Below, piece after piece: positions 352 through 37,100 of a DNA stretch of 39,077 nucleotides (positions within the stretch are counted from its first letter, which is position 1; each line of letters opens with the position of its first letter). The DNA is from Bacteroidota bacterium (GTDB lineage Bacteria; Bacteroidota; Bacteroidia; Bacteroidales; FEN-979). The position numbers were made by a program, and so were the translations under genes. The notes beneath the pieces are model-generated. The model was not told the DNA's origin. It did no database searches and was given only the letters and a program-made list of their open reading frames with translations. The stretch covers positions 1 through 39,077 of the forward strand of contig JAPLDN010000344.1 in the NCBI GenBank assembly GCA_026391755.1, read 5' to 3'.

Positions 352-1857
352 TTACAGGTCATGTCCGCAATACGATAAATTAAAACTCTTGTTACATAAG
401 GGGAAATCGGAGATTTCCTGGTTCCTTACAGCCAGCGCCAACGACATCCAGTTATGGAATGAAGGGTCTTTTACCTTGTAATGAATGATCTTCCCGTCCT
501 GGTCTGTGACTGCGGAATGCATTATCTCGCCCCTCCAGCCCTCGGCCAGCGACAAGGCAAAGCTTGAATGCTGAAGTTTGAATTCATATAAAGGTTGAGC
601 CGGATCCCTTTCAAAATCATTTATACTTAGAAGACCCCTGATCAGCTGAATTGATTTCTCAACTTCCTGCTTCCTGAGCATGGCCCTGGCCCAGACATCC
701 CCCTGGTGAAGGGTTCCGGGCTCATAATCAGAATCGGTAAAGGCCTGGAAGGGATGCGACCACCTGATATCACGTTTGACCCCGCTGCTTCTGGCAGCCA
801 TTCCAACAGCACCTATCATCCCTGCCTGGCGTGCATTGATTTTTCCTATACCTTCAAAACGACTGAGGACGCTGGGGTTTGTGAACATCTCATGCGTGAT
901 CTGCCCGAATCTTTTTTCAACCTCTTCCAGGTTTGAAAGCAGGATTTTAATAAAACCTCCGCTTAAAGGATAATGGCCTCCACCTGTCCGAACGAGGCCT
1001 TTCCCGAAACGGTTCCCGCACCACGACTGGGTTGTATTGATAACGATGGTGCGCAGGGCTTCATTCACAACCTGTCCGAACTGATAGGCAATATCGGTGC
1101 AAAGTGCTGCCGTGTCGCCAATGTGGACAGCGATCCGTTCAAGCTCGAGCGCAATAATGCGTTCGCTTGGCACGACTGCAGCAGGTGTTATTCCTGCAAG
1201 GATTTCCAACAGCTGGGCATGGGCGATTGAGTGACCCACTGCGGTATCGCCTGAAATGCTCTCAGCCAATACGGCACGCTGTATTCCCGAATGCTTTTGC
1301 AGGAATAGTGATTCTATTCCCCTGTGCTGGAAACCCAGCTGAATCTCAAGGTGCAGGACTTTCTCCCCATTGCAGCAGAAGCGAAAATACCCCGGTTCGA
1401 TGATCCCTGCGTGGATGGGGCCTACGCCCACTTCATGGATGCCTTCGCCTTCGATGGAGAAGAAGGGATATCGGATATCCGATATCTGATATCTGACATC
1501 TGACATCTGATATCGTACCGGTTTCATCCAGGGATGCCCTGTGAATTTCACTCCATATTGTTCACTGATCTCTCGTTCATACAGATGAAATGAAGGATGT
1601 GAGACAGTTAGAGAATCAAGCACAGGAATGGGAGAGGATTGCTGTTCATGTGAAAGCAGTACCAGGAAATGATCACTGTCGGATGCGATGCAGCAGAAGA
1701 ACCTGAGTGCTGCGCCAAGCGGTACCGCGTGATATGTAACGCAGTGGCATCCCTCATCCGCCATCAATAAATTTATGTTATCCATGAATTCAGGATAACC
1801 GAGGAGAGGGATATCGGCGAGAGGAACAATAAAGGGGTTTGTATTAAGTATCAGCAT
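352..1857 (-). CDS. Ehr complex large subunit (HyfG/HycE-like NuoC+NuoD fusion) lacking NiFe-binding cysteines
   Basis: Motifs YEREISEQYGVKFTGHPW, VGPIHAGIIEPGYFRF, GFQHRGIE, EGWRGEI, KVKDPSFHNW and C-terminal DFPLCNKSFNLSYCGHDL. The L1 site reads ESISGDTAVGH instead of RxCGxCxxxH. Confidence 0.88.
   Translation of the reverse strand: MLILNTNPFIVPLADIPLLGYPEFMDNINLLMADEGCHCVTYHAVPLGAALRFFCCIASDSDHFLVLLSHEQQSSPIPVLDSLTVSHPSFHLYEREISEQYGVKFTGHPWMKPVRYQMSDVRYQISDIRYPFFSIEGEGIHEVGVGPIHAGIIEPGYFRFCCNGEKVLHLEIQLGFQHRGIESLFLQKHSGIQRAVLAESISGDTAVGHSIAHAQLLEILAGITPAAVVPSERIIALELERIAVHIGDTAALCTDIAYQFGQVVNEALRTIVINTTQSWCGNRFGKGLVRTGGGHYPLSGGFIKILLSNLEEVEKRFGQITHEMFTNPSVLSRFEGIGKINARQAGMIGAVGMAARSSGVKRDIRWSHPFQAFTDSDYEPGTLHQGDVWARAMLRKQEVEKSIQLIRGLLSINDFERDPAQPLYEFKLQHSSFALSLAEGWRGEIMHSAVTDQDGKIIHYKVKDPSFHNWMSLALAVRNQEISDFPLCNKSFNLSYCGHDL
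1467..1515. repeat. 7 x 7-bp GAYATCN tandem array, in frame inside the Ehr large subunit
   Basis: gatatcg gatatcc gatatct gatatct gacatct gacatct gatatcg, translated as RYQMSDVRYQISDIRY. Confidence 0.95.
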
Positions 1858-1877
1858 GAATAGCGATAATTATATTA

Positions 1878-1947
1878 ACGAGCATTTTACACAAGCCGCA
1901 TCAGGTGCAGCAAAGCGGAACCGTAGCGGCGGTGTAAAGATACGAGT
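1878..1947. repeat. Intergenic imperfect palindrome (REP-like hairpin)
   Basis: tttacac(1886-92)/gtgtaaa(1932-38), gccgc/gcggc, ggt/acc and a gc-aaa-gc apex. CGAG on both basal arms could form a tandem G.A pair. Confidence 0.6.
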
Positions 1948-1973
1948 GCAGACACGATCATCACGTTTTTCAA

Positions 1974-3413
1974 TCATTTCGGCAGGTTTTGAATAATATC
2001 ATTGATCAGATCCCTGAAAAAAGCCGGCTGGGAAAAACAGATAAAAATTACAAGGCCGAACAGCACAAATTGTGAAACTGTTTGCCAGGGATTTACCTTC
2101 TCATGAAGTTTGCCCGATGCAGTGCGTGGCTGTGAAAAGACAATATGTAAAACCCTTGTAAGCAGTGCATAAAGAACATAGCAAAGCAAAAGGGCGGCCA
2201 CGGCCAGGTACAGGTAATCCCCGTTTGCTACCATGGCTTTGAACAGCAGCAGTTCCGAAATAAACATCCCCGAAGGAGGGATGGCGGTTATACAAAGAAG
2301 TCCGAGCAAAAGGGCAGTTGCACCGGCAGGATAAAGATTCATGTAATTTCCCGATTCGTCAAGGTTGTAAGTACCCATGACTTTGTACGATTGCCCCATC
2401 TGGTAGAAAAGACCGGCTTTCGCAAAAGAGTGAAGAATGATATGCAGTATGGCTGCATAATATCCTATGCCGCCCATCCCAAGCGCAATAGCAACAATAC
2501 CCATATTTTCCAGGCTGGAGTAGGCCAGCATACGCTTGTTGTGCTTGGCTTTGAGCATGTAACCGGCTGAAATCAGGAGTGAGAGGAATCCTGAAAGAAG
2601 CAAGACATGGTTCATAAAAGGCAGGATGGGTGTAGCCGAAAACAGTGCGTAAATTCGGAAAATCGCAAGGAACCCAACATTCATGAGAGCAGTCGAAATA
2701 AAAGCGCTGATGGGCGGAGGAGCCACGGTATGTGCATCCACGGTCACAGTATGCATTGGAAAGAGTCCCATTTTAGTACTGTAACCCACGAGTACGAAAA
2801 CAAACGCGATCTTAAGATACAGAGGGTTGGCCATGCGGGCAATCTCAGTTATTGAAGAAAATGAAAGATGCAGCAGGCGGGCATCTCTCACTGTAAACCC
2901 CAGGAAAAGAATACCGATATATGCGAGGGCGATACCAATTGAACAAACAAAAACATATTTCCAGGTAGCTTCAAGGGCAATTGCTGTACGGTCATGGTAG
3001 ATAAGGGCAGCTACCGCAAGCGTCGTAGCTTCCACGAAGATCCAGACTGTCGTCATCCCGTTGGCGAGGTAAGCTCCCGTCATTGAAGCAATCAGGGCAA
3101 TCAGGGCCGCATGATAAATTGCATAAATTCTTGGCGGATCATTTTTTACATAAATGAATCCATGGTAAACTGTTGTAATACTTAATACAGAAAGCACCGA
3201 CTGCAGTAACAGTCCCAAGGTGTCGAATGTAAAATAATCAAGTATGGTCTCCCCCCTGTGTGTCCAGCAATAGATCGTAAACCCAATGTGAACAAGGGTA
3301 TAGAATGATGTAAGCGCCCGTGCCAGAGGTTTTGAATGGATAAGTCCAACCATCAATCCGATCACCAGGGAGATGGCGAAAAAGAGGATGAATATATTTG
3401 TAACGCTAATCAT
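1974..3413 (-). CDS. hyfF: HyfF-like proton-translocating antiporter subunit (NuoM/NuoN/MrpD family)
   Basis: Highly hydrophobic; WIFVEATT, LEATWKY, GYSTKMGLFPMH, DAHTVAPPPISA, KRMLAYSSLEN, HSFAKAGLF. Confidence 0.88.
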   Translation of the reverse strand: MISVTNIFILFFAISLVIGLMVGLIHSKPLARALTSFYTLVHIGFTIYCWTHRGETILDYFTFDTLGLLLQSVLSVLSITTVYHGFIYVKNDPPRIYAIYHAALIALIASMTGAYLANGMTTVWIFVEATTLAVAALIYHDRTAIALEATWKYVFVCSIGIALAYIGILFLGFTVRDARLLHLSFSSITEIARMANPLYLKIAFVFVLVGYSTKMGLFPMHTVTVDAHTVAPPPISAFISTALMNVGFLAIFRIYALFSATPILPFMNHVLLLSGFLSLLISAGYMLKAKHNKRMLAYSSLENMGIVAIALGMGGIGYYAAILHIILHSFAKAGLFYQMGQSYKVMGTYNLDESGNYMNLYPAGATALLLGLLCITAIPPSGMFISELLLFKAMVANGDYLYLAVAALLLCYVLYALLTRVLHIVFSQPRTASGKLHEKVNPWQTVSQFVLFGLVIFICFSQPAFFRDLINDIIQNLPK

Positions 3414-3869: not shown

Positions 3870-3870
3870 G

Positions 3871-4839
3871 TCAGCGGATGAGGTTGCGGGTTAATAGTAA
3901 TACAAGGATAAAAGCGATCAGGGCGATGGAGCTCAGGGTCACGATGAACTGCGGATTTTTAGCCAGTTTTTTCCTTGCGCGGAAGGATTCCATGAGCCCG
4001 ATGGCAGCGGCGAATGCGGCCTGTACTAGCAGGAAGATAATACCATTCAGGAGGGTTGCCATCAGGTGAACCGTTAACGGTGAACCGTGAATGGCTGCAG
4101 TCACTAAAAACCAGTCATAGTTCACCGGCATAAAGAAATTGGCAATCAGTCCGCCGTATAATACGAACTTCAGGTTTGTACCTGTTTGTATGAAGGCAAG
4201 GTCGACCCCGCTGTAATCGAGGATCATCACTTCGTGGACCATGGTGAGTTCGAGATGAGTTTTAGGGTCATCGACAGGCATCCGGCTATTCTCGATCATT
4301 GCGATCTGCACCAGGAGGTAAATTGCAATGGCGCCTGCGATGAGGGAGAATTCACCCGCAAACTGGAAATGTGAAAAGATATCCTGCATTGAGAGATGGC
4401 CGGAAAGCAATGCCAGGGTGCCGAGCAGAATGAAAAATGCAGGTTCGGTAAGCATGGAATACAGGGCTTCGCGGTTGGCTCCCATCCCTTCGAAGCTGCT
4501 TCCGGTATCGAGTGCCCCGAGAATAAAAAGGAGTTTTCCCAGCGCGAGCAGGTATGCAAAAAGGATAAAGTCGCCTTCAAATCCAAGTACGGAAGACATG
4601 CCGGGGAAAGGCAGTAGCATCAGGGCACAGCAAATGGTAGCAAGGTAAACGGCAGGGGCCAGCCTGAAGATGAAACTGGTAGCGGTGCTAAATACGCTGC
4701 TTTTCCTGAACAGAAGGATAATGTTCTTCCAAGGCTGCAATATCCCCGGGCCTTTGCGGCCGCTGGCAATGCTTTTCACCCTGAGAATGATTCCCGGGAA
4801 AAAGATTGCAGATACTATAGCCAGCAGGGTTCCTGTCAT
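3871..4839 (-). CDS. hyfC: HyfC/HycD-like membrane subunit (NuoH family)
   Basis: GRKGPGILQPW, GALDTGSSFEGMGANRE, ENSRMPVDDPKTHLELTMVHEVMILDYSG. Start overlaps the upstream stop (ATGA). Confidence 0.9.
   Translation of the reverse strand: MTGTLLAIVSAIFFPGIILRVKSIASGRKGPGILQPWKNIILLFRKSSVFSTATSFIFRLAPAVYLATICCALMLLPFPGMSSVLGFEGDFILFAYLLALGKLLFILGALDTGSSFEGMGANREALYSMLTEPAFFILLGTLALLSGHLSMQDIFSHFQFAGEFSLIAGAIAIYLLVQIAMIENSRMPVDDPKTHLELTMVHEVMILDYSGVDLAFIQTGTNLKFVLYGGLIANFFMPVNYDWFLVTAAIHGSPLTVHLMATLLNGIIFLLVQAAFAAAIGLMESFRARKKLAKNPQFIVTLSSIALIAFILVLLLTRNLIR
4066..4093. repeat. 4 x 7-bp GTKAAYS array in frame inside hyfC
   Basis: gtgaacc gttaacg gtgaacc gtgaatg, within the stretch encoding IHGSPLTVH. 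Confidence 0.7.
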
Positions 4840-6860: not shown

Positions 6861-6966
6861 CGCATCTGCAAAATAACGGCATTAAGCAGTTGTGAAGTTT
6901 ATTTGATAAGAGAACTTATAAACAAGGAGGTGTGTTAAACCTGATATGCAAAGAGGCAGTTGATGT

Positions 6967-7958: not shown

Positions 7959-7971
7959 CGGTGTTTCTCAG

Positions 7972-10135: not shown

Positions 10136-10164
10136 CAAAGATACGAATCAATTTTTTACATTTG
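10136..10164. promoter_or_regulatory. Back-to-back -7 elements for metG (TATCTTTG, minus, 10136-10143) and the LD-carboxypeptidase (TACATTTG, plus, 10157-10164)
   Basis: Two exact TAnnTTTG matches in the short divergent intergenic region. Confidence 0.65.
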
Positions 10165-10169
10165 TGCAT

Positions 10170-11069
10170 ATGATTCAGCCACCATACCTTAAGCGAGGCG
10201 ACAGGATCGCGATTGTAGCCCCGGCCCGGGCGATTTCCTTCGACGAAGTTCATCCGTCTATGAAATTATTCCAGAAATGGGGGCTTGAAGTCATCCTGGG
10301 ATCCTATGTTTTCAACATTGAAAACCAGTTTGCAGGCAGCGATGCCCAGAGGCTGAAGGATTTGCAGACCATGCTCGATGATGCCTCAATAAGGGCTGTT
10401 ATTTGCGCCCGTGGAGGTTACGGCATGGTTAGGATCATCGACAAGCTGGATTTTACCAAGTTCATGAGATATCCGAAGTGGATCGTAGGATACAGTGATA
10501 TGACAGTGCTGCATTCACATATTCACCGTCATTTCGGGATTGAGACACTGCATGCCACCATGCCCCTGAATATGCCGGAGCATCAGCTTGGCAGTACATC
10601 TGTAGAAACGCTCAGGAAGGCTTTGTACGGAGAGGAGATCATCTATTCCAAAAGAATTGGCGCTCTCGATCGCACAGGAGCCGGGGAAGGCATACTTGCC
10701 GGAGGCAATCTCTCGATTTTATACAGTCTTATGGGATCACATTCCCAGATCGACACCAGGGGGAAGATCCTTTTCATTGAAGATGTTGATGAATACCTCT
10801 ACCATATTGACCGCATGATGATGGGCCTGAAGCGAGCCGGGATGCTCAAAGATCTCAAAGGCCTGATCGTTGGAAGCATGCATGAAATGAGAGACAACAC
10901 CATACCCTTTGGCAAAACTTCCAGTCAGATCATTTTCGAGGCAGTTAAAGAATACAAATACCCGGTTTGTTTTGATTTTCCGGCAGGCCACTGTCCTGAA
11001 AATGTGGCTATGATCCTTGGACGCAGGGTGAAGCTGATCGTGGATGAAGAGGTGGAGCTGGGGTTTTAG
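10170..11069 (+). CDS. LD-carboxypeptidase, peptidase family S66 (LdcA/MccF-like)
   Basis: CARGGYG, GYSDMT (catalytic Ser), GGNLS, LFIEDVDE (Glu), FPAGH (His). Start set at ATG 10170. Confidence 0.92.
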   Translation: MIQPPYLKRGDRIAIVAPARAISFDEVHPSMKLFQKWGLEVILGSYVFNIENQFAGSDAQRLKDLQTMLDDASIRAVICARGGYGMVRIIDKLDFTKFMRYPKWIVGYSDMTVLHSHIHRHFGIETLHATMPLNMPEHQLGSTSVETLRKALYGEEIIYSKRIGALDRTGAGEGILAGGNLSILYSLMGSHSQIDTRGKILFIEDVDEYLYHIDRMMMGLKRAGMLKDLKGLIVGSMHEMRDNTIPFGKTSSQIIFEAVKEYKYPVCFDFPAGHCPENVAMILGRRVKLIVDEEVELGF

Positions 11070-11071
11070 CG

Positions 11072-11134
11072 GGATTACTGGATAGCTGGATGACTGGATA
11101 GCTGGATAAGGGATAACGGGATGACTGGTTATAC
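11072..11134. repeat. Degenerate 8-bp tandem array (GGATnnCT-like, about 8 units)
   Basis: ggattact ggatagct ggatgact ggatagct ggataag ggataacg ggatgact ggttatac, starting 2 nt after the S66 stop codon. Confidence 0.85.
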
Positions 11135-11160
11135 GGAATCCAGGCCAAATAATTAAAACA

Positions 11161-11523
11161 ATGTCAAAGTCTTACGATCTCGGTAAAAAAGGCGAAGACC
11201 TTGCAGCAGAATACTTGCTGGCAAAGGGGATTACAATCCTTGCCCGCAATTTTCGTGCCGGAAAAGCCGAGCTCGACATTGTTGCCATCGACAAGGAAAT
11301 ACTTGTAATCGTTGAAGTTAAAACCCGCAACACCCGTTTTTTCGGTGAACCCGAAGAATGGGTAACACCTGCGAAGCAAAAACTCCTGATCAGGGCTGCA
11401 AATGCCTATGTGAAGTTCAGGGCATTTAAAGGCGAGGTAAGGTTTGATATAGTTTCAGTGATTGCGGATGAGCATGGTACTGAAATCCGGCACATCCCCG
11501 ATGCATTTTATCCAACACTCTAA
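11161..11523 (+). CDS. yraN: YraN family (UPF0102) putative endonuclease
   Basis: LGKKGEDLAAEYL, ELDIVA, IVEVKTR, RFDIVSV, HIPDAF. Confidence 0.92.
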   Translation: MSKSYDLGKKGEDLAAEYLLAKGITILARNFRAGKAELDIVAIDKEILVIVEVKTRNTRFFGEPEEWVTPAKQKLLIRAANAYVKFRAFKGEVRFDIVSVIADEHGTEIRHIPDAFYPTL

Positions 11524-11536
11524 AATGTACATCGAA

Positions 11537-11574
11537 CTCATGCCTCATGGCTCATGACTTATGGCTCATCTCAT
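11537..11574. repeat. 7-bp CTCATGN array between convergent yraN and rnhA
   Basis: ctcatgc ctcatgg ctcatga cttatgg ctcat ctcat; the last partial unit contains the rnhA stop codon. Confidence 0.8.
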
Positions 11575-12239: not shown

Positions 12240-12253
12240 GACACTTACTTGAA

Positions 12254-12319
12254 CAGTGAATAGTGAACAGTGACCAGTTATCAGTCACCAGTCACCAGTC
12301 ACTAGTCACCAGTCACCAG
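12254..12319. repeat. 9 x 7-bp CAGTSAC-type array in the flippase 5' UTR
   Basis: cagtgaa tagtgaa cagtgac cagttat cagtcac cagtcac cagtcac tagtcac cagtcac cag. Confidence 0.92.
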
Positions 12320-12323: not shown

Positions 12324-13823
12324 ATGTCGTCAATCAAGCGCCTTGCCTCACAAACTGCAGTTTATGGGATCCCTACAATCCTGGGACGATTCCTGCAGTA
12401 CCTCCTGGTCATACTGCTTACAAGGATATTCTCCAAGGCAGAGTACGGTACTATCAGCGTGTTTTATTCCTATGCCTCCTTTCTCATGGTAGTTTTGACC
12501 TATGGGATGGAAACTGCATTTTTCCGTTTCAGCGAAAAAGAAGAGGATAAAGACAGCGTCTTCAGTACCGGAATGATTTCATTACTGCTCACTTCGGCTT
12601 CTTTCATTTTCCTGGCCAGCTTATTTTCCGGAACAATTGCAGGATGGATTGATTATCCCCTGCAGGCAAAATACGTTATCTGGTTTGCCTGGATCCTCGG
12701 TCTCGACGCCCTGGTTGCCATCCCGTTTGCAAGGCTGCGCTCCCAAAATAAAGCTGCAAGGTTTGCGACTTTGAAAATGATCAATATTTTTACAAATATA
12801 GGACTGACCTTGTTCTTCATTGTAGCCTGTCCGTATGCCTGGAAGCATTATCCGTCGGTTCAGGGGGTTTTGGGCCTGGTTTACCGCCCCGACTGGGGAA
12901 TAGAATATGTTTTCATCGCTAACCTTGCAGCCAGCATAATTACCCTTGCTTTACTCCTGCCCATGTTGTTGAACATGAGATGGAAAATGCATAAGGTCTT
13001 ATGGAAACGAATGCTGTTTTATGCTTTTCCCTTACTGTTTGCAGGACTTGCCGGGATGGTGAATGAAACTTTCGACCGCCTCATGCTGAGATATCTCCTT
13101 CCGTATTCGAGGGAGCTCACCGAGGCACAGGTGGGGATTTACAGCGCCTGTTACAAGATATCCATCCTGATCACCTTGTTTGTGCAAGCCTATCGCTTTG
13201 CGGCAGAGCCCTTCTTTTTTGCCCATGCCAGGGAGAAGGATGCCAGGCAAACATACGCCCGCATCATGGATTATTTCATCATCGCAATTTCCACGGTATT
13301 CCTGGTCACCATGCTGTATCTCGACGATATCTTCATCCGCCTTATAGGAAAAGATTTCAGGGAAGGCAAAGCTGTCATCCCCGTTCTGATGCTTGCCAAC
13401 ATCTTTCTCGGGATCTATTACAATCTTTCCATCTGGTATAAGCTTACCGGGAAAACGATCTGGGGTGCCTGGCTTTCTTTGATAGGGGCGGTAATCACCT
13501 TGGTGTTGAACTTCTGGTGGATCCCACTTAGCCCCGACCACCTTATTCACGGGTATATAGGTTCGGCCTGGGCAACATTTATATGCTACGGATCCATGAT
13601 GGTGATCGCTTACCTGCTCGGACAAAAATACTATCCGGTACCTTACAGGATCTGGAAAGCAGCCGGCTATACCGGTTTTGCACTTCTTCTCTATCTGATC
13701 AGCGCTTATCTAAGTATCCAGCATCCAGTATCCCGCATCCTCTTTCATACCGGATTGCTTTTTGTTTTCCTGCTGACGGCTTTCCTAGTCGAAAAGCCTC
13801 GACTTGTCAAGGCTTCCGATTGA
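12324..13823 (+). CDS. Oligosaccharide flippase / polysaccharide biosynthesis protein (Wzx-like, MOP superfamily)
   Basis: Many TM segments; LASQTAVYG, LTYGMETAFFRF, NETFDR, YRFAAEPFFF, YYNLSIWYKLT; position upstream of dut is typical of Bacteroidota. Confidence 0.85.
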   Translation: MSSIKRLASQTAVYGIPTILGRFLQYLLVILLTRIFSKAEYGTISVFYSYASFLMVVLTYGMETAFFRFSEKEEDKDSVFSTGMISLLLTSASFIFLASLFSGTIAGWIDYPLQAKYVIWFAWILGLDALVAIPFARLRSQNKAARFATLKMINIFTNIGLTLFFIVACPYAWKHYPSVQGVLGLVYRPDWGIEYVFIANLAASIITLALLLPMLLNMRWKMHKVLWKRMLFYAFPLLFAGLAGMVNETFDRLMLRYLLPYSRELTEAQVGIYSACYKISILITLFVQAYRFAAEPFFFAHAREKDARQTYARIMDYFIIAISTVFLVTMLYLDDIFIRLIGKDFREGKAVIPVLMLANIFLGIYYNLSIWYKLTGKTIWGAWLSLIGAVITLVLNFWWIPLSPDHLIHGYIGSAWATFICYGSMMVIAYLLGQKYYPVPYRIWKAAGYTGFALLLYLISAYLSIQHPVSRILFHTGLLFVFLLTAFLVEKPRLVKASD

Positions 13824-13856: not shown

Positions 13857-14291
13857 ATGAGAATCAGGATAGTAAACAATTCCCGCCATCCTTTGCCGGC
13901 ATATGAAACCGCTGCTTCGGCGGGCATGGACCTCAGAGCTTTTATTTCCAATGAGATGATTCTGAAACCCCTCGAAAGAGCAATGGTACCTACGGGATTA
14001 TTTATTGAACTCCCGCTGGGATTTGAGGCCCAGGTAAGGCCCCGAAGCGGCCTGGCCATTAAAAAAGGTGTTACGGTACTGAATACCCCGGGCACAATAG
14101 ATGCCGATTACCGGGGTGAGATCAAGGTCATTCTCATTAATTTATCGAATGAGGATTTCATAGTTAAGGACGGGGACAGGATTGCGCAAATGATCATTGC
14201 AGCTCACGAAAAGGCCGAATGGATGCAGGTGGATAAACTGGAAGAAACAAGCAGGGGTGCCGGGGGATTTGGGCATACTGGAGAGAAGTGA
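13857..14291 (+). CDS. dut: dUTP diphosphatase
   Basis: [39 protein letters not shown]. Confidence 0.98.
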
Positions 14292-14315
14292 CCAGTGACC
14301 AGTCACTAGTCACTT
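14286..14315. repeat. 4 x 7-bp AGTSACY array forming a 14-bp hairpin over the dut stop codon
   Basis: aagtgaccagtgac / gtcactagtcactt are inverted with one mismatch; TGA at 14289-14291 is the dut stop. Confidence 0.85.
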
Positions 14316-26090: not shown

Positions 26091-26118
26091 GGGAGTCACC
26101 AGTCACAAACAAAACACT

Positions 26119-27441: not shown

Positions 27442-30400
27442 TTATTTCTCGATGACCAGCTTCCGGATAAAGGAACCTGCCTCGCTTTGTATCCTGATAT
27501 AGTAGATTCCGTCAGGGTTCCCAGTCAAGTCAATGAGCTTGCTGAATTTTCCGCTGACCAGCAGGTCTTTCTCTGAAAACACCGTTGATCCCAATGAATT
27601 GAACACATTGATTTCGACCGGAACAGCCGAATGAGAGTTGAATTCTATAGTGAATTTACCGCTGGCCGGGTTAGGGTATACCTCGAAGCCAGGTCCGTTT
27701 ATCTCACCGATACCGGCTGAGGCATAAAGGACAACCGTCTTTTCCATAGAAGCAGGTGCGTCGCCGCAGTCATTCCTGGCCTTCACGCTGATCTTCACGT
27801 TGCCCTTGTATTTGTTAGCCCATGTTGCAGTCCCTGTAAGAGCTCCGGTGATAGTGCCGGCGTCAGAAGGATCAATAATCCAGTCATACCCTGTGGCATT
27901 TGCAGCAGCCAGTGTTGTGAATTCAGTGGAAGAAACCCTGTTGGTATTCACGCTGTCGGGACCGCTTGGTTTTACAGCCGAAGCAGGAACTGCCACAATA
28001 ACAACTTCCGTGTTTTTAGTATCAGAACAACCATTTGTTGACTGGATGTTCAGTGTTACCGGATAAGTACCCGCTGCCAGGTAAGTATGGACAGGGTTCT
28101 GAAGATTTGAAGTATTGCTGCTTCCTGATGAAGGATCTCCAAAATTCCATGACCATGAGGTTATTATTGTGCCAGGATAAGTTGAGAGGTCGGTGAATGA
28201 AGTTGCTGAACCTTCGCAGCTGGCATCGTTTGCAAAGGCGGCAACAGGTTTCACATCCACATGTATGTATGCCGGTTTGATTTTAGTACTGGGGTTCATG
28301 CCCGCTTTTGAAACAGTGAGGGACACATCGTAGTCGCCAGGAGCAGAATAAATTATCGAGGAAGGATTTTTAAGGTTTGATGTACCTGGCGTTGCGCCCT
28401 GGAAAGTCCACTCCCAGCCACTCGGTGAGCCGGTTGAGAAGTCGGTAAAATCAACCGGTGAACCTGTACAGACAGAGGTATTGTTTGTAATGAAATCAGC
28501 GGCCAGGATTTGTTGAGCTACTGTGATAAATGAGGTATGGCGTTTAAAATCCTGTTTTGTTGCAACCACCATGATCTTTGTCCCGACCGGAAGGGCGGGG
28601 ATTGTTAAAGTGACAGGTCCTGATGCGCTTCCGAGTGCCGTTGTGATGATCTCATTGTTCATTGTGAGGGCGATGAAAGAGCTGTCGTTTGCAATGATTT
28701 CAACCGTTGTTGCCCCGACGTCAACCGTAGCAGGATGGTTTACCGTGAGTTCCATAGGAACCTCATCGGCGAGCTGCAAAAAAGCATCTCCGTGCATATG
28801 GAACAAGCGGAAGGTGATTTGCTTGTCGTCCGAATTGTATGGCCAGCCCGATTGTTGAAGGAAGTACTTGCCACCTGCATTTCCAAAAGCAGGAAGCATA
28901 CCCCGGGAAACAGGAGGAGTCCCATAATCGGGCATGAACTGGGGCCACAGATTGTCAAAGACTCCCCAGAGATAGGTGTCATTCACAAACGATAAGGAAG
29001 TCTCGGTTGGGCAGATCAGTCCAAGGGCGCCGGCATCATGACCGTTCTTTGTAAGGCCTTGGAATACTTCTGAAAAGCATTGGGAAGGGCAGCCCTGAGG
29101 ATTATGGAATGCACCTGTCTCGCAATTGATCGAGAATACAAAAGGAAGAAGTGTATTTGTCAGCTCGTTGATACTAGAGTCACTGTAGGAAGGTTCACCC
29201 CAACGGGTATAGTTCCCATGATCCCGGTGAAGAAGGACGAATGCACCTTCGTTTATCGCGTTATTGATCTTTGTGGCTGTTCCGTCAGTAAAGCCTCCAA
29301 GGTCCCCGGGGTTATCCGGGATATAATTCAATCCCGATGGACCGAAATAGGATATGACTGTGCTTGTATTCGGAGCGGTTGACCATGGGCCGGTATTATA
29401 ATTATTTGCAGGAGTATACAGGGCATTGATCCTTTGAACATGTTTCCCGAGCTTATTCTTCCAGAACCCTCCAACAAGTTCTGAACAGAGCTGAAACCAG
29501 CGGTCATCCTCCCATCCGAGGGCTGATATTGGGTGCATATAATAGCCGGTATCGGAAGGACGGTTTCTCTCAAAGTTCATGATACGGCCAACCATAATTC
29601 GTAATTCCGCTGAGTCATTAGCGCATATCCTCGAAAAAACAACATCGGGTAAATCATCACCGGTAACATCGGCATAGTAGTTATCCGAAGCATAATCGGG
29701 GTATCCATAGGGATGAAAATAAAGATGGGAGATGATATTTTTACTGGCATCGGTACCATAGTCACCAAGCAGAAGACATGCGACAGGTTTGATGGTCCAG
29801 TTTGCATACGCATCGGAAATAAATGCTTTTATTGCCGTTTCGGTATTACCGCCAACCTGGGTGAGTGAGAAAACCTTTGTAAGAATACCTTGCTGGTTAC
29901 GCCAGTTTTTAAGGGTGTCGGCCCAGCGGAGGAAATCAGGCCCGTCGGGGCTGATGATTATATATTCACATTCATTGCTGGCAGCAGATTTAGAAGTTCT
30001 TATCTGCTGCATTTTTTCGGGATAATTCACCGAAGGGAGAGAAGAAAAATTCAGGATATTATCGGCCATGATAGGATCCCAGTAAGGACTGCGGAATGCA
30101 TCATTCCCGTAAGCATGGCTTCCTCCCTCGAAAGTGAGGTTTATCCTGATGTTCTTGTACACCTTCAATTCCTTTGTTACCGGGTTATACTGGAAAGGTG
30201 TAATACCCAGAATGATCACATCGGTACCGCGGATCTGTTCCACCCTGGATATCTGTACCGGGTTTGCAGGATAGAACGCATTGGTAGCATAGGTTACCTG
30301 GTCTTTCCTGTAAACGATGTCTTTCTGAGTATCCAAAGGTGTTTGAGGGGCCCATGCAAGGTCAATTCCCTGAAAGGTTTCCACTTCAAAGTCAAGGATG

Positions 30401-30705
30401 TTTAAATGGGGAGTTGAGCCCTGGGGAATTGCAATATAACGGCCTGTACCCGGAAGGTCGGGTTTGCCTGCATCGTTGGAAAGAAACACCCCCGGAAGGT
30501 TGACTTTTTTTACAGGTTGCCCTTCGATTATAACAGGCTCAATGGAAAAATTATGGATGGAATATACAACCTGCACCATATCTGCTTTTGTCATGGTGAG
30601 GTTAAAACCCTGCCTGCTCCAGCTGTTGCTGAAACTAAAATTCTCTGCGTTCAGCGAAAGCGTAATACTTAAGAAGGTGGTAAGCAGGAATAAAGATCTT
30701 GTCAT
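27442..30705 (-). CDS. C25 (gingipain-like) cysteine protease with propeptide, two PKD domains and T9SS C-terminal domain
   Basis: GKPDLP propeptide, LLLGD, SDNYY, RDHG (catalytic His), SINCETG (Cys), HMHGD, PKD motifs WEWTFQG and WSWNFGD, VYPNPA...GIYYI...KLVI. Confidence 0.9.
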   Translation of the reverse strand: MTRSLFLLTTFLSITLSLNAENFSFSNSWSRQGFNLTMTKADMVQVVYSIHNFSIEPVIIEGQPVKKVNLPGVFLSNDAGKPDLPGTGRYIAIPQGSTPHLNILDFEVETFQGIDLAWAPQTPLDTQKDIVYRKDQVTYATNAFYPANPVQISRVEQIRGTDVIILGITPFQYNPVTKELKVYKNIRINLTFEGGSHAYGNDAFRSPYWDPIMADNILNFSSLPSVNYPEKMQQIRTSKSAASNECEYIIISPDGPDFLRWADTLKNWRNQQGILTKVFSLTQVGGNTETAIKAFISDAYANWTIKPVACLLLGDYGTDASKNIISHLYFHPYGYPDYASDNYYADVTGDDLPDVVFSRICANDSAELRIMVGRIMNFERNRPSDTGYYMHPISALGWEDDRWFQLCSELVGGFWKNKLGKHVQRINALYTPANNYNTGPWSTAPNTSTVISYFGPSGLNYIPDNPGDLGGFTDGTATKINNAINEGAFVLLHRDHGNYTRWGEPSYSDSSINELTNTLLPFVFSINCETGAFHNPQGCPSQCFSEVFQGLTKNGHDAGALGLICPTETSLSFVNDTYLWGVFDNLWPQFMPDYGTPPVSRGMLPAFGNAGGKYFLQQSGWPYNSDDKQITFRLFHMHGDAFLQLADEVPMELTVNHPATVDVGATTVEIIANDSSFIALTMNNEIITTALGSASGPVTLTIPALPVGTKIMVVATKQDFKRHTSFITVAQQILAADFITNNTSVCTGSPVDFTDFSTGSPSGWEWTFQGATPGTSNLKNPSSIIYSAPGDYDVSLTVSKAGMNPSTKIKPAYIHVDVKPVAAFANDASCEGSATSFTDLSTYPGTIITSWSWNFGDPSSGSSNTSNLQNPVHTYLAAGTYPVTLNIQSTNGCSDTKNTEVVIVAVPASAVKPSGPDSVNTNRVSSTEFTTLAAANATGYDWIIDPSDAGTITGALTGTATWANKYKGNVKISVKARNDCGDAPASMEKTVVLYASAGIGEINGPGFEVYPNPASGKFTIEFNSHSAVPVEINVFNSLGSTVFSEKDLLVSGKFSKLIDLTGNPDGIYYIRIQSEAGSFIRKLVIEK

Positions 30706-30771
30706 ACAGAGGAATGCATGATAAGTTAATATACGATATCGTGAAACACTCTTATAAATGGCGATCCGGGA

Positions 30772-32889
30772 TTATCTGACAATGAGTTTTGTTCTTGCTT
30801 TCAGGTTTGCACCCTCTATTTCGATAGTATAAACCCCCGTAGGGATCTGGGGCAGGTTCAAAGTAAGGGGCTCCGGTTCCGAAAGGCTCATTTTCTCCCA
30901 TGTTTTAACGATCTGCCCATAAGTATTGATCAAACGGATACTGACGCTGGAACCTAAAGCAGTTCCGGCTTTCAGGGTTACCTTTCCTGAACATGGATTC
31001 GGGTAAGCAGTTAAATTTACAATGTTCTGTTTATCCTGAATTCCAACAGTAATATTCTCGGTAAAGACCCAGAGTGAGGGGTCGCCAAGTAAATTGCAGT
31101 CATAATGACACCAGCGCTGGGCTCCCGGCTCAAACTCACCGGGAAGAGTCACCCATGGGGCCGTTTTAATTTTCGACATAAGATGGGCTGTGCCAATTTC
31201 ATGGATCTGGTCTGAAACGGTATCGTTATAAATTGCACTTACAAATTCCCTGTTCAGGTGGGCCGATGGCCCTTCTGTAGTACCCTGGTCAAACCATCCG
31301 TACCTGGAATTAAAAATGCCACCTGCCAGAAAATTCTCAATCAGCACCATTTTCTCGGCAATACAGTCGTTGGCATCGAAAGCGCCACAGTCGCATCCAT
31401 GGGTATACATCAGGGTGTAATTATGGGTGACGCCGTTCAGAGCATAGAAATTTGCATTGGTGACATCACCCAGATTAAGCCTCATAACATAAACCTGGTT
31501 GGCGTGACCTGCATGGTAAATGAACGATGGCCCATTGTTTATCCTGCTGAAAAGATCGCTAATGGTCCAGGTATAACCAACAGGACCACCGGGGCTGATA
31601 AGGGTATCGAATAACCTGTCGATATTGTTGTAGGCTGATGGAATGCCATGGGTAAAATAGCCGTTGTCGTCATGGTTATCAACCAGGAGTTCCAGGTAAT
31701 CCTGCCCCATAGTCCAGCGTGGGGTGGACGAATCCATAAATTCAGCTGCCAGAAGAGGTCGGGCCTGCTCGTTGGGTTTCTGGTGGGTGCGGTACCATAT
31801 CGTTTTATGAATGATGTTAGCTTGCTCCTGGGCTGTCCCAAAAGGGAGTCTTCCAACAGAAACATCGGGCAGCAGGTCAGCAGAATCTGCAACTTCGCCA
31901 TAAATTCCATTGGCATTCGCATCGTAATTTCCGTCCATTCCCGAATAATACAGGTCGGCAGGAATATCAAAGCTGGTATAGCCTGATCCTGAAATCACAT
32001 GACAATAGAAACCACGATTCGGAACAATGTCAACATCACCACCAAGAAGAGCATATTCGATGCCTTTCTGCTGGTATTCCCGTTTGATAAGGTTACGGAT
32101 CTTATCCTGGTTATCAATTCCGCTGATTGTTGAGTAGATGTTTTCGACAGTATAGATTTGCGCACTGATCCCCAGTGAGTCGTACATATGTACGAGAGGT
32201 GCGAACCCGGATGTAAAATTGTCTCCAGTAATTATGAGTATCTGGTACCCGTTGGAAGCGCTTTTTTTCGCAGGATAATGCTCAATCAATTCAGTATTCT
32301 GGGAGAATTGCCTGATCCTGTTCCTGACTTTTTCCGATGGGGAAAGATTTTTCAGGGCTTCTGCGGATGAGGACGATGTTTCGGTGGATATGGTTATTGT
32401 GACATCTGAATAATATCCGGCTTTCTGAAGATAAGGATAATATATCAAAGGAGTAAAAGTGCAGAGCGCAAAGGCATAACCGTTAAGATATGAAGTAGTA
32501 AGATTTCCTGTTGCCGTAAGAGGGTAAGCGTTGGAAGAGCTATATGCAGCTTCGTTTTTAAGAAATTTCCCATTATCTCCTTTTGATATCGGGCTGATAT
32601 CCTGTTGGGGCTGGATAATATAGTTCCCGGGCAATTCAACAAAACCCGAGACCTGCATAAGGATTTTTACAGCTGATTCTCCGGGAGGGAGCATTAGCGA
32701 GATTGCCTGCCAGGGCAGCATAGGTTCACCCGGCTTACCCGACAACAAGGTATGGTCAAATGAAATCGTCTGGAAGTTTCCGTTGCTTTTTATATCAGGC
32801 TTCCCGAAATGGTAGGTTTTGATTACAGTGCCGGCATATAATGAAAGGCTCAGGAAGCAGGCCAGGGAAAAGATGATATGTTTTTTCAT
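30772..32889 (-). CDS. C25 (gingipain-like) cysteine protease with T9SS C-terminal domain
   Basis: Start reassigned to MKKHII (32889). GEPMLP, ALLGGDVD, PADLYY, VGRLP, HAGHAN, THGCDCG, NLLGDP, YPNPC...GVYTI...KLIV. Confidence 0.88.
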   Translation of the reverse strand: MKKHIIFSLACFLSLSLYAGTVIKTYHFGKPDIKSNGNFQTISFDHTLLSGKPGEPMLPWQAISLMLPPGESAVKILMQVSGFVELPGNYIIQPQQDISPISKGDNGKFLKNEAAYSSSNAYPLTATGNLTTSYLNGYAFALCTFTPLIYYPYLQKAGYYSDVTITISTETSSSSAEALKNLSPSEKVRNRIRQFSQNTELIEHYPAKKSASNGYQILIITGDNFTSGFAPLVHMYDSLGISAQIYTVENIYSTISGIDNQDKIRNLIKREYQQKGIEYALLGGDVDIVPNRGFYCHVISGSGYTSFDIPADLYYSGMDGNYDANANGIYGEVADSADLLPDVSVGRLPFGTAQEQANIIHKTIWYRTHQKPNEQARPLLAAEFMDSSTPRWTMGQDYLELLVDNHDDNGYFTHGIPSAYNNIDRLFDTLISPGGPVGYTWTISDLFSRINNGPSFIYHAGHANQVYVMRLNLGDVTNANFYALNGVTHNYTLMYTHGCDCGAFDANDCIAEKMVLIENFLAGGIFNSRYGWFDQGTTEGPSAHLNREFVSAIYNDTVSDQIHEIGTAHLMSKIKTAPWVTLPGEFEPGAQRWCHYDCNLLGDPSLWVFTENITVGIQDKQNIVNLTAYPNPCSGKVTLKAGTALGSSVSIRLINTYGQIVKTWEKMSLSEPEPLTLNLPQIPTGVYTIEIEGANLKARTKLIVR

Positions 32890-32923
32890 TTCAATAATAC
32901 AGTTTTGATTAGTTTTCAGACAA

Positions 32924-32931
32924 CAAAGGTA
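32924..32931 (-). promoter_or_regulatory. -7 element (TACCTTTG) upstream of the C25 pair
   Basis: Exact TAnnTTTG match 34 nt upstream of ATG 32889. Confidence 0.65.
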
Positions 32932-33029
32932 CCTAAAAAGTTGCTTAATTGAACATATAATAAAAGGAGGCCGGCATGGATTGCTCCCGGGAAATGCCAT
33001 TCAAAGGTTTCGTCAGCGTGCTAGTGTTA

Positions 33030-34127: not shown

Positions 34128-34140
34128 ACGTTCTTTTTTT

Positions 34141-34211
34141 ATCTGATATCTGACATCTGCCATCCGATATCCGATATCGGATATCTGATATCGGATATCG
34201 GATGGCAGATG
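34141..34211. repeat. 10 x 7-bp array containing a perfect 25-bp inverted repeat, directly after the polA stop
   Basis: catctgccatccgatatccgatatc (34154-34178) is the exact reverse complement of gatatcggatatcggatggcagatg (34187-34211). Confidence 0.95.
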
Positions 34212-37100
34212 CTAATGCGCCAGCAGCCAGTTCGCCCCGGTATTCATATCGATCTCTACAGGAACATCCAGCAGCAAAGCAGTCTTCATCCCGGCTGCAA
34301 CAATTTTTTTAACTTCATCAACTTCAGGCTGATAAACATCAAAAACAAGTTCGTCATGCACCTGGAGGATCATCCTTGATCTCAGTTTTTGATTTTCAAA
34401 CTTATCAAAAATTCTGATCATGGCAATTTTTATCATATCTGCAGCCGTTCCCTGCACCGGTGCGTTGATGGCATTTCGTTCGGCAAATCCGCGAACATTG
34501 GCATTTCCCGAATTGATGTCCCTGAGGTATCGCCTGCGTTTCATCAGGGTTTCCACATAACCGTTTGCACGGGCAAAAGCAATGGTATTGTCCATATACT
34601 TCCTGATCCCCGGATACTGTTCAAAATACTGTTTGATCACATCGCCGGCTTCCTTTCGCGACATCCCCGATCGTTCCGACAAACCAAAAGAAGAGATCCC
34701 GTATATAATCCCGAAGTTCACCATCTTGGCGTTACGGCGCATATCCTTGCTTACCTCCGCAAGAGGGGTGTTATAAATTTTTGCAGCCGTAGCCTGGTGG
34801 ATATCCTCACCGTTCTTAAACGCGGCTATCATATTTTTATCCCCGCTCATGGAAGCAATGATCCTGAGCTCGATCTGGGAATAGTCGGCGCTCAGTAAGG
34901 TAAAATTCTCATTTCTCGGCACAAACGCTTTGCGGATCTCACGGCCTTTCTCGGTACGGATGGGGATATTCTGAAGGTTAGGATTATTGGAGCTCAGCCT
35001 GCCCGTCGCCGCAACGGCCTGGTTATATGAAGTATGTATGCGGTTATCGCGAGGACTGACCAGCCCCGGAAGCACATCCACATAGGTCGACTTAAGCTTT
35101 GTCAGGGACCTGTATTCAAGTATCTTGCTGATGATGGGATGCTTTGCCTCCATCTTGCTCAGCACATCCTCGGAGGTCGAATTCTGCTTGTTCTTGGTCT
35201 GCTTGGGCTTGTCAACGATTTTTAAGCGGTCGTAAAGTATATCTCCAAGCTGTTTGGGAGAAGAAATGTTGAAGGTGGTGCCTGCATCCCGGTAGATCTC
35301 TTCGGTGATCCGGGCCACCTCTTTTTCGAGTTCTCCCGAATATTCGTTCAGTACCGATGAGTCAATACGCACTCCCTCTTTTTCCATGGACGCAAGCACG
35401 GGGATAAGCGGGATCTCGATCTCGTCGAAGAGTTTGCGCGTATCGCTTTCGGCCAGCATGGGTTCGAATACATTCTTCAGCTGAAGCGTCACATCTGCAT
35501 CTTCCGCTGCATATTCCTTCACCGTTTCCGTATCAACCGTGCGCATGCTTAATTGCCCGGAGCCCTTCTTCCCGATCAGGGTCTCAATCGAAACCGGTTT
35601 GTATTTCAGGTAGATCTCCGAGAGCAGATCCATATTATGTCGCATATCAGGCTGGATCAGGTAATGCGCCATCATGGTATCAAACATTGGCGTTTGCACA
35701 TCGACACCATACCATTTTAAGATTGCGATATCGAATTTCATGTTCTGTCCGACTTTCTCGATCTTCTGATCCTCAAGTACTTCTTTGAATTCCTGGACGA
35801 TCAGCTCGGTCTCGTGGTAATTCTCGGGGAAAGGGAGGTAATACGCTTCATGCGGCTTCACCGAAAACGACATCCCCACCAGCTCCGAATTGTTGGGATC
35901 AATGCCCGTAGTCTCCGTATCAAAGCAGAATGTTTTGCTCTCTTTAAGACTGCGGATGAGGTCATGGCGGGCTTCAGGCGTGGTGACAAGAAAATAGGTG
36001 TGGGGGGTGGATGAGATGTCGGATGTCGGATGGCTGATGTCGGATGGCGGATGGCTGATGGCGGATGGCAGATGACTGATGGCGGATGGCGGATGACTGA
36101 TGGCGGATGGCGGATGGCGGATGGCTGATGGCGGATGGCTGATGTCGGATGTCGGATGGCTGATATCCGATATCTGATATCTGACATCTTCTTTTTGAGA
36201 TTCTGCATCCTGAATCCCTGCTGCCCACTTGAAAACACGTTCTCCCAGCGCCCTGAACTCCAGTTCGTCGAACAAACGCTTCAGGCGCTGCTCGTCGGGT
36301 GCTTCCATGATCAGTTTCGAGGGTTCGAAAGCGATAGGGACATCAAGTATAATAGTCGCCAGGCTTTTCGACATCAGGGCCTGGTCTTTGAATTCAATAA
36401 CTTTTTGCCTCAACTTTTCATTAGCGACTTTTTCGGGATGCTCAACCAGGTTCTCCACCGAGCCGAATTCAGCCAGCAGCTTACGGGCCGTAACTTCACC
36501 CACACCAGGGATCCCCGGGATGTTATCCGAAGCATCGCCCCATAATCCCAGCATGTCGATAACCTGTTCGGGGCTGCTTACCCCGAATTTTTCACAAACT
36601 TCCTTCACGCCCAGTATATCCACATCACCCCCGAATTTTCCCGGACGGTAGATCAGTGTGGTAGCACTTACGAGCTGTCCGAAGTCCTTATCCGAAGTCA
36701 TCATATAAGTAATCCAGCCGGCCGCTTCAGCCTGCTTGGCGAGTGTGCCTATCACGTCATCCGCCTCGAAGCCATCCACAAAAAGAACGGGAATGTTAAA
36801 GGCGTGAAGAAGTTCGTGAATAAGTGGGAGTGAGGAAATTATGTCTTCAGGAGTTTCTTCGCGATGGGCTTTGTAAAATTCGTAATCTCCGTGGCGCACT
36901 GTTGGTGCAATGGTATCGAAGGCCACACCGATATGAGTGGGCTTTTCTTTACGTAAAACATCGAAGAGGGTGTTAGCAAATCCGAAGACAGCCGAAGTGT
37001 TAACGCCTTTGGAGCTTACCCTGGGATTGTTCTTGAAAGCATAATATGCCCTGTAGATCAGGGCCATAGCATCAAGCAGGAAGAGTTTATTGTCTGGCAA
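34212..37100 (-). CDS. polA: DNA polymerase I (5'-nuclease, intact 3'-5' exonuclease motifs, polymerase) with a repeat-derived linker
   Basis: LLDAMALIYRAYYA, FEADDVIG, GDASDNIPG, FDTETTG, GQNMKFD, YAAEDA, TGRLSS.NPNLQNIP, ADYSQIELR, NFGIIYG, LQVHDELVF. Start probably TTG 37100, because the promoter element lies inside the longer ORF. Confidence 0.97.
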   Translation of the reverse strand: MPDNKLFLLDAMALIYRAYYAFKNNPRVSSKGVNTSAVFGFANTLFDVLRKEKPTHIGVAFDTIAPTVRHGDYEFYKAHREETPEDIISSLPLIHELLHAFNIPVLFVDGFEADDVIGTLAKQAEAAGWITYMMTSDKDFGQLVSATTLIYRPGKFGGDVDILGVKEVCEKFGVSSPEQVIDMLGLWGDASDNIPGIPGVGEVTARKLLAEFGSVENLVEHPEKVANEKLRQKVIEFKDQALMSKSLATIILDVPIAFEPSKLIMEAPDEQRLKRLFDELEFRALGERVFKWAAGIQDAESQKEDVRYQISDISHPTSDISHPPSAIRHPPSAISHPPSAISHLPSAISHPPSDISHPTSDISSTPHTYFLVTTPEARHDLIRSLKESKTFCFDTETTGIDPNNSELVGMSFSVKPHEAYYLPFPENYHETELIVQEFKEVLEDQKIEKVGQNMKFDIAILKWYGVDVQTPMFDTMMAHYLIQPDMRHNMDLLSEIYLKYKPVSIETLIGKKGSGQLSMRTVDTETVKEYAAEDADVTLQLKNVFEPMLAESDTRKLFDEIEIPLIPVLASMEKEGVRIDSSVLNEYSGELEKEVARITEEIYRDAGTTFNISSPKQLGDILYDRLKIVDKPKQTKNKQNSTSEDVLSKMEAKHPIISKILEYRSLTKLKSTYVDVLPGLVSPRDNRIHTSYNQAVAATGRLSSNNPNLQNIPIRTEKGREIRKAFVPRNENFTLLSADYSQIELRIIASMSGDKNMIAAFKNGEDIHQATAAKIYNTPLAEVSKDMRRNAKMVNFGIIYGISSFGLSERSGMSRKEAGDVIKQYFEQYPGIRKYMDNTIAFARANGYVETLMKRRRYLRDINSGNANVRGFAERNAINAPVQGTAADMIKIAMIRIFDKFENQKLRSRMILQVHDELVFDVYQPEVDEVKKIVAAGMKTALLLDVPVEIDMNTGANWLLAH
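36015..36189. repeat. 25 x 7-bp GAYRNCN tandem array, in frame in the polA inter-domain linker
   Basis: 21 GATG(G/T/A)C(G/T/A) units followed by gatatcc gatatct gatatct gacatct; translated as DVRYQISDISHPTSDISHPPSAIRHPPSAISHPP... Confidence 0.97.

Follow-up and report, generated by a model that had tools for sequence, protein, structure and literature searches.

The 39,077-nt stretch of DNA analysed here, referred to as the window, is contig C175 of an assembly of 3.16 Mb in 435 contigs (87% complete; genome G000), and carries tandem arrays of 7- and 8-nt units in gene spacers, over stop codons and within genes (Table 1). The sequencing runs that contain the window carry the label freshwater metagenome. 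The type IX secretion system (T9SS) sorting domains, C25 peptidases and DUF4292 found in the window with Pfam are typical of Bacteroidota, and the host is not a heterocystous cyanobacterium.

Tandem repeats were called by Tandem Repeats Finder (TRF), with a score of at least 30 for array calls in the window. TRF recovered six of the seven heptamer arrays that a preliminary description of the window had listed as clear, whereas the seventh, at 4066, stayed below this score and is made up, by eye, of four diverged units. The octamer array was likewise recovered, and the two remnants listed before are visible as about 2 to 2.7 units, but neither was scored. In-frame translation, proposed for three arrays, was borne out for all of them. 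The array at 1467 is translated on the minus strand in gene 352-1857, a NuoC/NuoD-like fusion, where it separates the 30-kDa from the 49-kDa Pfam domain; the array at 4066 is translated within a gene resembling NADH dehydrogenase subunit 1 (3871-4839); and the array at 36015, read on the minus strand, encodes approximately residues 322-380 of DNA polymerase I, which belong to the linker that joins the 5'-3' exonuclease domain, ending at residue 288, to the 3'-5' exonuclease domain, starting at residue 388 (Pfam). The last array has a super-period of 21 nt (TRF score 230 vs 195 for period 7). The additional array at 13713 is also translated. Arrays over stop codons were confirmed at 11067 and 14287, and the two-block array at 12250 is located upstream of a polysaccharide-biosynthesis gene (12324-13823).

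Table 1. Tandem arrays and remnants in the window, with their extent, copy number and mode of detection.
Feature	Position	Copies	Detection and context
Heptamer array, GATATCN/GACATCT units	1467..1514	6.9	TRF
Weak array, four diverged GTGAACC-like units	4066..4095		By eye; TRF score <30; fold z -0.9
Octamer array, CTGGATAR units	11067..11128		TRF; begins on stop codon of LD-carboxypeptidase gene 10164-11069
Heptamer array, CTCATGS units	11537..11569	4.7	TRF; fills spacer where the YraN-family and RNase H-like genes converge
Two-block heptamer array, CAGTGAA-type then CAGTCAC-type, partly inverted	12250..12319	4.1; 7.4	TRF rows 12250-12278 and 12268-12319
Short heptamer array, ATCCAGC units, translated in gene 12324-13823	13713..13740		TRF; absent from the preliminary description
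Short heptamer array over stop codon of dUTPase gene 13857-14291	14287..14303	2.4	TRF
Two-unit remnant, AGTCACC and AGTCACA, between divergent gene starts	26094..26107		Unscored by TRF
Fold-back heptamer array, hairpin with 26-bp perfect stem	34140..34203	9.1	TRF; between polA stop and start of ROK-family gene
About 25 heptamer units, GATGGCG grading to GATATCT	36015..36189	21.4; 4.3	TRF rows 36015-36164 and 36160-36189
Remnant of about 2.7 units, CTGCATC-like, beside polA array	36199..36221		Unscored by TRF

In the whole of G000, TRF reported 479 period-7 rows, compared to 68 and 71 in two order-5 Markov simulated genomes that served as the chance control, and 174 period-8 rows, compared to 80 and 89. 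At a TRF score of at least 50, 148 merged period-7 and 43 period-8 arrays were observed and no other period exceeded nine, whereas the simulations yielded none for periods 7 and 8. Merging of the period-7/8 calls gave 573 arrays with a total length of 20.5 kb (0.65% of G000). The same order, with period 7 before period 8 and both far ahead of the others, recurred in all five relatives sampled (400 kb per genome). The period-7 rows with two to five copies number 136, 119, 94 and 50, respectively, a steady fall. The arrays are real and not due to chance, and the genome-wide period scan that the preliminary description had called for places period 7 far above both the simulations and the other periods.

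The placement of the arrays was assessed against our own crude calls based on open reading frames (ORFs), which mark 91.5% of G000 as coding. Among the 236 period-7 arrays with a score of at least 40, 102 are intergenic, 49 lie over a stop codon, 15 over a start codon and 6 over two gene ends (70 gene-end overlaps in total), and 64 lie within an ORF, 17 of them no more than 60 nt from the start of the longest ORF. Coding sequence is accordingly depleted in these units, the length of which is not divisible by 3 (64 of the 236 arrays, in a genome that is approximately 91% coding), whereas arrays of periods 6, 9, 10 and 12 lie mostly within genes. In addition, 101 of the 298 period-7/8 arrays start between -6 and +7 nt from a stop codon. 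Start codons exhibited no comparable pile-up, with array ends mostly 16-100 nt away from them. The arrays within genes lie in linkers and loops and consist of units without stop codons in the sense frame. The arrays survive only where they are harmless, in spacers, where they mostly start at the stop codon, and in linkers or loops with a total length that stays in frame, as had been supposed earlier. A preference for the purine-rich orientation after stop codons (66 vs 14 of 124 arrays) was rejected as a finding, because the units carry stops in one orientation only, so that the array itself sets the end of the ORF.

The preliminary description had suggested that filled and empty orthologous sites be compared. 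The genomes compared are all short-read metagenome-assembled genomes (MAGs), which break at arrays, and related genomes are non-independent observations. Arrays were taken from the samples of four congeners, and their flanks were located in G000. For G009, 35 orthologous sites were found, of which 30 carry an array in G000 (17 of the same unit family and 13 with a different unit) and 5 are empty. For G008, 23 of 28 sites carry an array (9 same, 14 different) and 5 are empty; for G005, 16 of 29 (2 same, 14 different), with 13 empty; and for G002, 10 of 17 (1 same, 9 different), with 7 empty. A further 7, 8, 21 and 7 arrays of G009, G008, G005 and G002, respectively, had no orthologous site in G000. 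Arrays were therefore retained at 55-86% of the relatives' sites, against a baseline of 12-19% (274 of 2337 gene junctions in G000, or 264 of the 1416 junctions with a spacer of at least 20 nt), whereas the same unit family was found at 6-49%. These results indicate that the array sites are conserved far better than the units, which are often replaced. Length changes occur in whole units: G008 and G007, which are 97.0% identical over 4,498 nt, differ there by three gaps, two of which are exactly 7 nt and lie within heptamer arrays.

In most congeners, as well as in three further genera of the family, the polA linker measures 231-425 nt and contains 7/8-mer arrays, the units of which differ in almost every species, whereas the linkers of 15 more distant relatives measure 120-195 nt and had no array called inside. 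The reading frame is open in 25 of 26 linkers. The linker of G009 (L011) is 425 nt long, which is not a multiple of 3, and the gene forms two separate open frames, reflecting either an array-induced frameshift or an assembly error. All polA linkers (L001-L029; window 36190-36260), with or without arrays, keep a Q/P-x-L-F-S/G/D motif between the two array-bearing stretches. This motif resembles the beta-clamp-binding consensus and is a candidate for such a site.

For the NuoC/D loop, the two outgroups have 84 nt without repeats and G001 has 54 nt, whereas the other congeners have 84-201 nt with approximately 3-19 copies, and all 13 spacers recovered are in frame. The units are mostly of the GGATGCA type followed by their complement; G000 has GATATCA/GATGTCA instead, G006 has yet another unit, and eight congeners in all carry units other than those of G000.

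At the other sites of the window, the octamer family of 11067 also occupies the orthologous site in G009, G008 and G002, and the site of 11537 carries other units in G009, G003 and G001. In G008, G007 and G002, the YraN-family and RNase H-like genes are separated by an extra gene of approximately 600 nt, at the place occupied in G000 by the heptamer array alone (window 11524-11570). The spacer of 12250 contains arrays in all eight congeners for which it was recovered, seven with related units and G003 with other units. A related array is present in G009 at the site of 13713. The dUTPase site at 14287 is occupied by GGGAACR arrays of 17-19 copies in G007 and G008 and by octamers in G004, G001 and G002.

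The units had been described as sharing a grammar of a palindromic hexamer plus one base. Counted over arrays, a perfect palindromic hexamer is present in 94 of 472 (20%), and in 35 of 128 at a score of at least 50, compared to 10% expected for random genomic heptamers. Counted over distinct unit families, however, the figure is 13 of 133 (9.8%), which is the chance level. The excess over arrays arises because GATATCN, the commonest family with 52 arrays at 52 loci in G000, is abundant; the grammar is thus only partly borne out and is no general rule across unit families. Of 298 units, 209 contain a GAT/ATC core (23% expected) and 112 contain GGAT (7% expected). The main unit family of the congener G002 lacks the GAT/ATC core, and the core was rejected as a rule; it is read as a probable trace of lineage history, with a common ancestry of the words. 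Exact four-unit GATATCN runs occur in MAGs of many phyla (at least 114 stretches); among the matches listed, single genomes of some Bacteroidota, Bdellovibrionales and Gemmatimonas contain several such runs.

The gradual change of units along an array, reported in the preliminary description, was not supported. Within TRF rows, the mean distance between adjoining units was 1.179, compared to 1.196 after permutation, and 43 of 87 arrays lay below their own permuted value. The apparent drift is better described as switches between neighbouring sub-arrays, and 24 of 274 loci contain more than one array. The spectrum of unit families is reproducible within G000 (split-half cosine 0.86), and its similarity to the spectra of relatives drops with phylogenetic distance (cosines of 0.49 for G009, 0.56 for G008, 0.28 for G005, 0.12 for G002 and 0.08 for G011). 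The dominant word of G002 is not among the 60 commonest families of G000. The family at 52 loci, the genome-specific spectra and the replacement of units by a genome's own words all support the earlier proposal that something spreads unit sequences between loci.

The inversion of arrays into hairpins, which had been noted for some of them, was strong for the array at 34140 (26-bp stem, -28.3 kcal/mol, z -9.8), weak for that at 1467 (z -2.8) and weaker for that at 12250 (z -1.9), whereas folding yielded no hairpin for the remaining arrays of the window. Over the genome, a reverse-complement copy of two units was found in the array or within 250 nt of it for 107 of 298 arrays, compared to 5 of 298 in the control. 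Of 156 loci of 40-260 nt, 44 fold much better than their counterparts with the right half flipped, 75 are plain direct arrays, and 77 have z < -3 against shuffles, compared to 7 of 156 random segments. The polarity of the hairpins is fixed for each unit family: in the GATATC/GACATC/GATGGC family, the C-rich arm comes first in 16 of 17 hairpins, and likewise at 34140, while in the other families the G-rich arm comes first in 25 of 27. In the polA linkers, inverted arms are seen by eye in several species, with significant folding only in G009, G013, G001 and G006; the linker of G000 exhibited no significant fold (z +1.1).

The genes named in the preliminary description as possible correlates of array load included four-helix-bundle genes. 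S23p (PF05635) is the four-helix-bundle protein of rRNA intervening sequences. A profile search for PF05635 gave no match in the window and matched G000 only on C433, C265 and C276. One S23p gene is split over two contig ends (C433:2-343 and C265:4-162), with a G-rich heptamer array upstream and a complementary array downstream; C433 and C265 are syntenic with a single locus in G002 and G013, where the arms are also complementary and made of other units. The second, lower-scoring paralogue, on C276, has no arrays. In the best-scoring S23p loci of relatives, which were not drawn at random, 17 of 28 are flanked on either side by 7/8-mer arrays, which mirror each other in 14 cases, compared to a baseline of 8 of 1894 genes in G000. 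The literature search on S23p and heptamer arrays returned only a paper on Coxiella (PMC4990558).

Conversely, the S23p copy number does not follow the array load in the six genomes sampled; copies and arrays per 400 kb are, for example, 1 and 54 in G009, 7 and 84 in G005, 20 and 72 in G011, and 4 and 29 in G002. The reverse transcriptase profile RVT_1 was not found in G000, with the assembly 87% complete. G000 contains one Y1 transposase gene (PF01797; C205:4882-5313) with no array or hairpin in its flanks; every congener has a single copy, and array-poor relatives carry it as well, so that a driver of this type, resembling the RAYT transposases of repetitive extragenic palindromic (REP) elements, was rejected. 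The earlier idea of a dedicated writer gene was not supported by either profile, and no writer enzyme was found.

Loss of MutS1 was rejected as a cause, since MutS1 is present in 31 of 31 genomes. SbcD (TIGR00619) was not found in 26 of the 31, namely G000 and 25 of its 30 relatives, including 17 of the 18 others of its family. Loss of SbcD showed no clean link to the arrays, since the sample richest in arrays, G005, has SbcD, and the gene is missing from array-poor relatives too. The lack of SbcD might ease the tolerance of long hairpins.

These results suggest, with somewhat more support than doubt, that the arrays are hepta- and octanucleotide long simple-sequence repeats (LSSRs), a kind of bacterial microsatellite, and a trait of the whole genus and of part of the family. 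It is likewise fairly probable that this known microsatellite-like class arises by a combination of slippage, template switching and copying between loci, filtered by tolerance. Growth would proceed by replication slippage, with loops as long as 7-8 nt expected to evade mismatch repair. The complementary arms would be made, and kept matched, through intrastrand template switching at hairpins, and either ectopic template switching or gene conversion would carry units from locus to locus. Such concerted evolution would be like the 'library' behaviour of eukaryotic satellite DNA, and no dedicated enzyme would be required. The private vocabularies, together with sites that outlive their units, mean that pure local slippage is insufficient; we infer template switching behind both the arms and the exchange of units.

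Several observations weigh against this explanation. Slippage alone explains neither the preference for period 7 nor the same words at dozens of loci, and the copying between loci is deduced, no copying event having been seen. The hairpin polarity fixed per family (16 of 17 vs 25 of 27) is not predicted by random template switching, and adjoining units no more alike than permuted ones fit simple local duplication poorly. The conservation of sites could equally reflect function. Moreover, the copy numbers come from short-read metagenome assemblies, in which, for 27 of 298 arrays, a contig ends no more than 100 nt away.

The conservation of array sites, 3-7 fold above the baseline, the pile-up at stop codons and the 26-bp perfect stem at 34140 would also be expected if the arrays were selected functional elements at gene ends, such as RNase III sites, terminators, transcript stabilisers or insulators, which appears rather unlikely for the arrays as a whole. 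Under this explanation, long RNA or DNA stems or protein-binding arrays would be constrained in structure or periodicity only, which would allow the units to turn over by compensatory change. The arms of the S23p cassette, which stay complementary while the units differ in G000, G002 and G013, argue for a function of the stem, as do the published S23p intervening sequences, with terminal stems cut by RNase III (PMC4990558, in excerpt); the Xanthomonas heptamer repeats are reported, in the excerpted text of PMC4692102, to be mostly transcribed. However, 75 of 156 loci are plain direct arrays without a fold of their own, and similar arrays are translated into loops and linkers of housekeeping proteins, for which a role at transcript ends makes no sense. 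The copy number at one site varies from approximately 3 to 19, between 5 and 13 orthologous sites are empty in G000, and the hairpin at 34140 has no T run after it on the sense strand. Nevertheless, the possibility of a selected stem role competes seriously with the main explanation, at the very least in the case of the S23p cassettes.

A dedicated machinery that writes or mobilises the arrays, for which S23p together with a polymerase is the best candidate and of which the ORF-less hairpins would be miniature S23p-cassette derivatives, is improbable. The S23p four-helix-bundle protein is a relative of Avd, the accessory protein of diversity-generating retroelements (DGRs). The mirror-image arrays around S23p at 14 of 28 loci of relatives include genomes that are array-poor elsewhere, and the two unit families flanking S23p in G000 also form six ORF-less hairpins; the polarity fixed per family is consistent with such a machinery, as are the variable-copy tandem heptamers upstream of the S23p ORF in the Coxiella intervening sequence (PMC4990558, in excerpt). 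On the other hand, the S23p copy number does not track the array load, and the cassettes lie at orthologous sites across genera and are thus not visibly mobile. No RVT_1 was found in the 87%-complete G000, the single-copy Y1 transposase is neither flanked by arrays nor restricted to array-rich genomes, and the window contains no S23p gene.

The arrays could also be a genome-wide, actively copied repeat system tied to the S23p (PF05635) stem cassettes, with the S23p pentamer binding or stabilising slipped heptamer hairpins, a proposal we consider very doubtful. Equally doubtful is its further part, in which the ORF-less hairpins are miniature derivatives and copying between loci explains both the private vocabulary and the fixed polarity. 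If true, the system would be a bacterial counterpart of the concerted evolution of satellite DNA with a protein partner.

An origin of the arrays as artefacts of short-read assembly is extremely improbable. Arrays are frequent end points of Logan contigs (1503/1505, 11079 and 12241/12333 are examples), and 27 arrays of G000 lie near contig ends, but same-site arrays are present in up to ten independently assembled congeners, the frames stay open in 13 of 13 NuoC/D loops and 25 of 26 polA linkers, and a contig from another study bridges 11060-11460 with one differing letter. Joints in Logan contigs at 11109 that go back 38 or 43 nt suggest that the octamer array also exists in longer variants, although these joints could stem from loci elsewhere that share its units.

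The arrays are a real example of a known but unexplained class of bacterial repeats and not a new system; the claim of an undescribed system does not stand, since heptanucleotide tandem repeats are a published class (PMC4679880 and PMC4692102, both in excerpt). The LSSRs of prokaryotes with units of 5-11 nt (Mrazek, Guo and Shah 2007, as summarised in the excerpted text of PMC4679880) most commonly have units of 7 nt; the same summary describes a scattered phylogeny, depletion in coding sequence and a proposed origin by slippage. The arrays of G000 share three features with this class, being above chance, most commonly heptameric and depleted in coding sequence. They differ in their host, an uncultured freshwater genus of Bacteroidota, in the vocabulary shared within each genome, in the conserved sites with turnover of units and in the frequent inverted arms.

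The short tandemly repeated repetitive (STRR) sequences of cyanobacteria, which Mazel et al. reportedly described in 1990, are dispersed intergenic heptamer arrays in many copies that are not known to have a settled function or origin. The arrays of G000 are similar in all these respects but belong to another phylum, and the STRR units occur in 0-1 of the 479 period-7 rows.

The quadruplex-forming GGGNATC repeats of Xanthomonas and Nostoc (Rehm et al. 2015, PMC4692102, in excerpt) are heptamers that are spread over the genome, over-represented in non-coding sequence, close behind stop codons and variable in copy number. The heptamers of G000 share these properties; however, only 1 of the 479 rows is of that type (38 are GGGATNN-like), and the copy counts fall monotonically, without a preference for four units. 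The TAACTGA repeats of Beggiatoaceae, Cyanobacteria and five Bacteroidetes (MacGregor 2015, PMC4679880, in excerpt) are similar in having one heptamer word at many loci, a patchy distribution over phyla and stop codons within the unit that limit placement. In contrast, this unit is present in 0 of the 479 rows, and the arrays of G000 abut stop codons, whereas TAACTGA lies directly upstream of start codons. The excerpted text of the same paper states that no mechanism is evident for such repeats.

The Coxiella 23S rRNA intervening sequence (Warrier et al. 2016, PMC4990558, in excerpt) has a 28-bp terminal stem cut by RNase III and a variable number of heptamers upstream of the S23p ORF. The cassettes found here likewise have the PF05635 ORF in the loop of a long stem of complementary termini, with variable tandem heptamers beside it, but they lie between protein genes and their stems consist of 7/8-mer arrays; the feature is present at C433 and C265 and absent from the window.

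REP elements and bacterial interspersed mosaic elements (BIMEs), which are associated with RAYT transposases, are dispersed, species-specific, hairpin-forming extragenic palindromes of 20-40 nt, and the 'library' model of eukaryotic satellite DNA describes the concerted evolution of a shared repertoire. The arrays are similar to both, as dispersed, species-specific, hairpin-forming extragenic repeats with a shared repertoire that evolves in concert. They differ from REP elements in that the units of G000 are 7-8 nt and stand head to tail, and the lone RAYT-like gene is unflanked by arrays. The same head-to-tail units without spacers distinguish them from clustered regularly interspaced short palindromic repeats (CRISPR), which have repeats of 23-50 nt with unique spacers.

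The arrays bear on how such repeats arise, why 7 nt is preferred and why one word recurs at many loci, questions that date from the first description of these repeats. Indels in unit steps, conservation of sites and replacement of units can be counted in this genus, since array sites can be aligned across ten of its genomes. Peptide inserts of variable nature are contributed by the arrays to DNA polymerase I, to MutS and to a subunit of a respiratory complex, and short-read assemblies break at the arrays.

For MutS of G000, two complementary heptamer arrays are translated near the C-terminus (C239:4432-4510). In several congeners, the TIGR01070 match of MutS ends at approximately position 785 of 840 and the ORF continues.

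GC-rich mini-hairpins with a 5-bp stem and a GAA or TTC loop occur in phase inside octamer arrays, for example at C52:2053-2090, C350:9622-9680 and C379:510-580. The genome contains 42 of them, compared to 16-19 in the simulations, and 24 of them have an array no more than 40 nt away. A larger mobile element was sought by flank homology, which was seen only for a subset of the octamer arrays with these mini-hairpins, and this candidate was rejected.

In the window itself, two adjoining C25-peptidase genes with T9SS sorting domains occupy 27442-33000, one of which also has PKD domains, an arrangement that is ordinary for the phylum.

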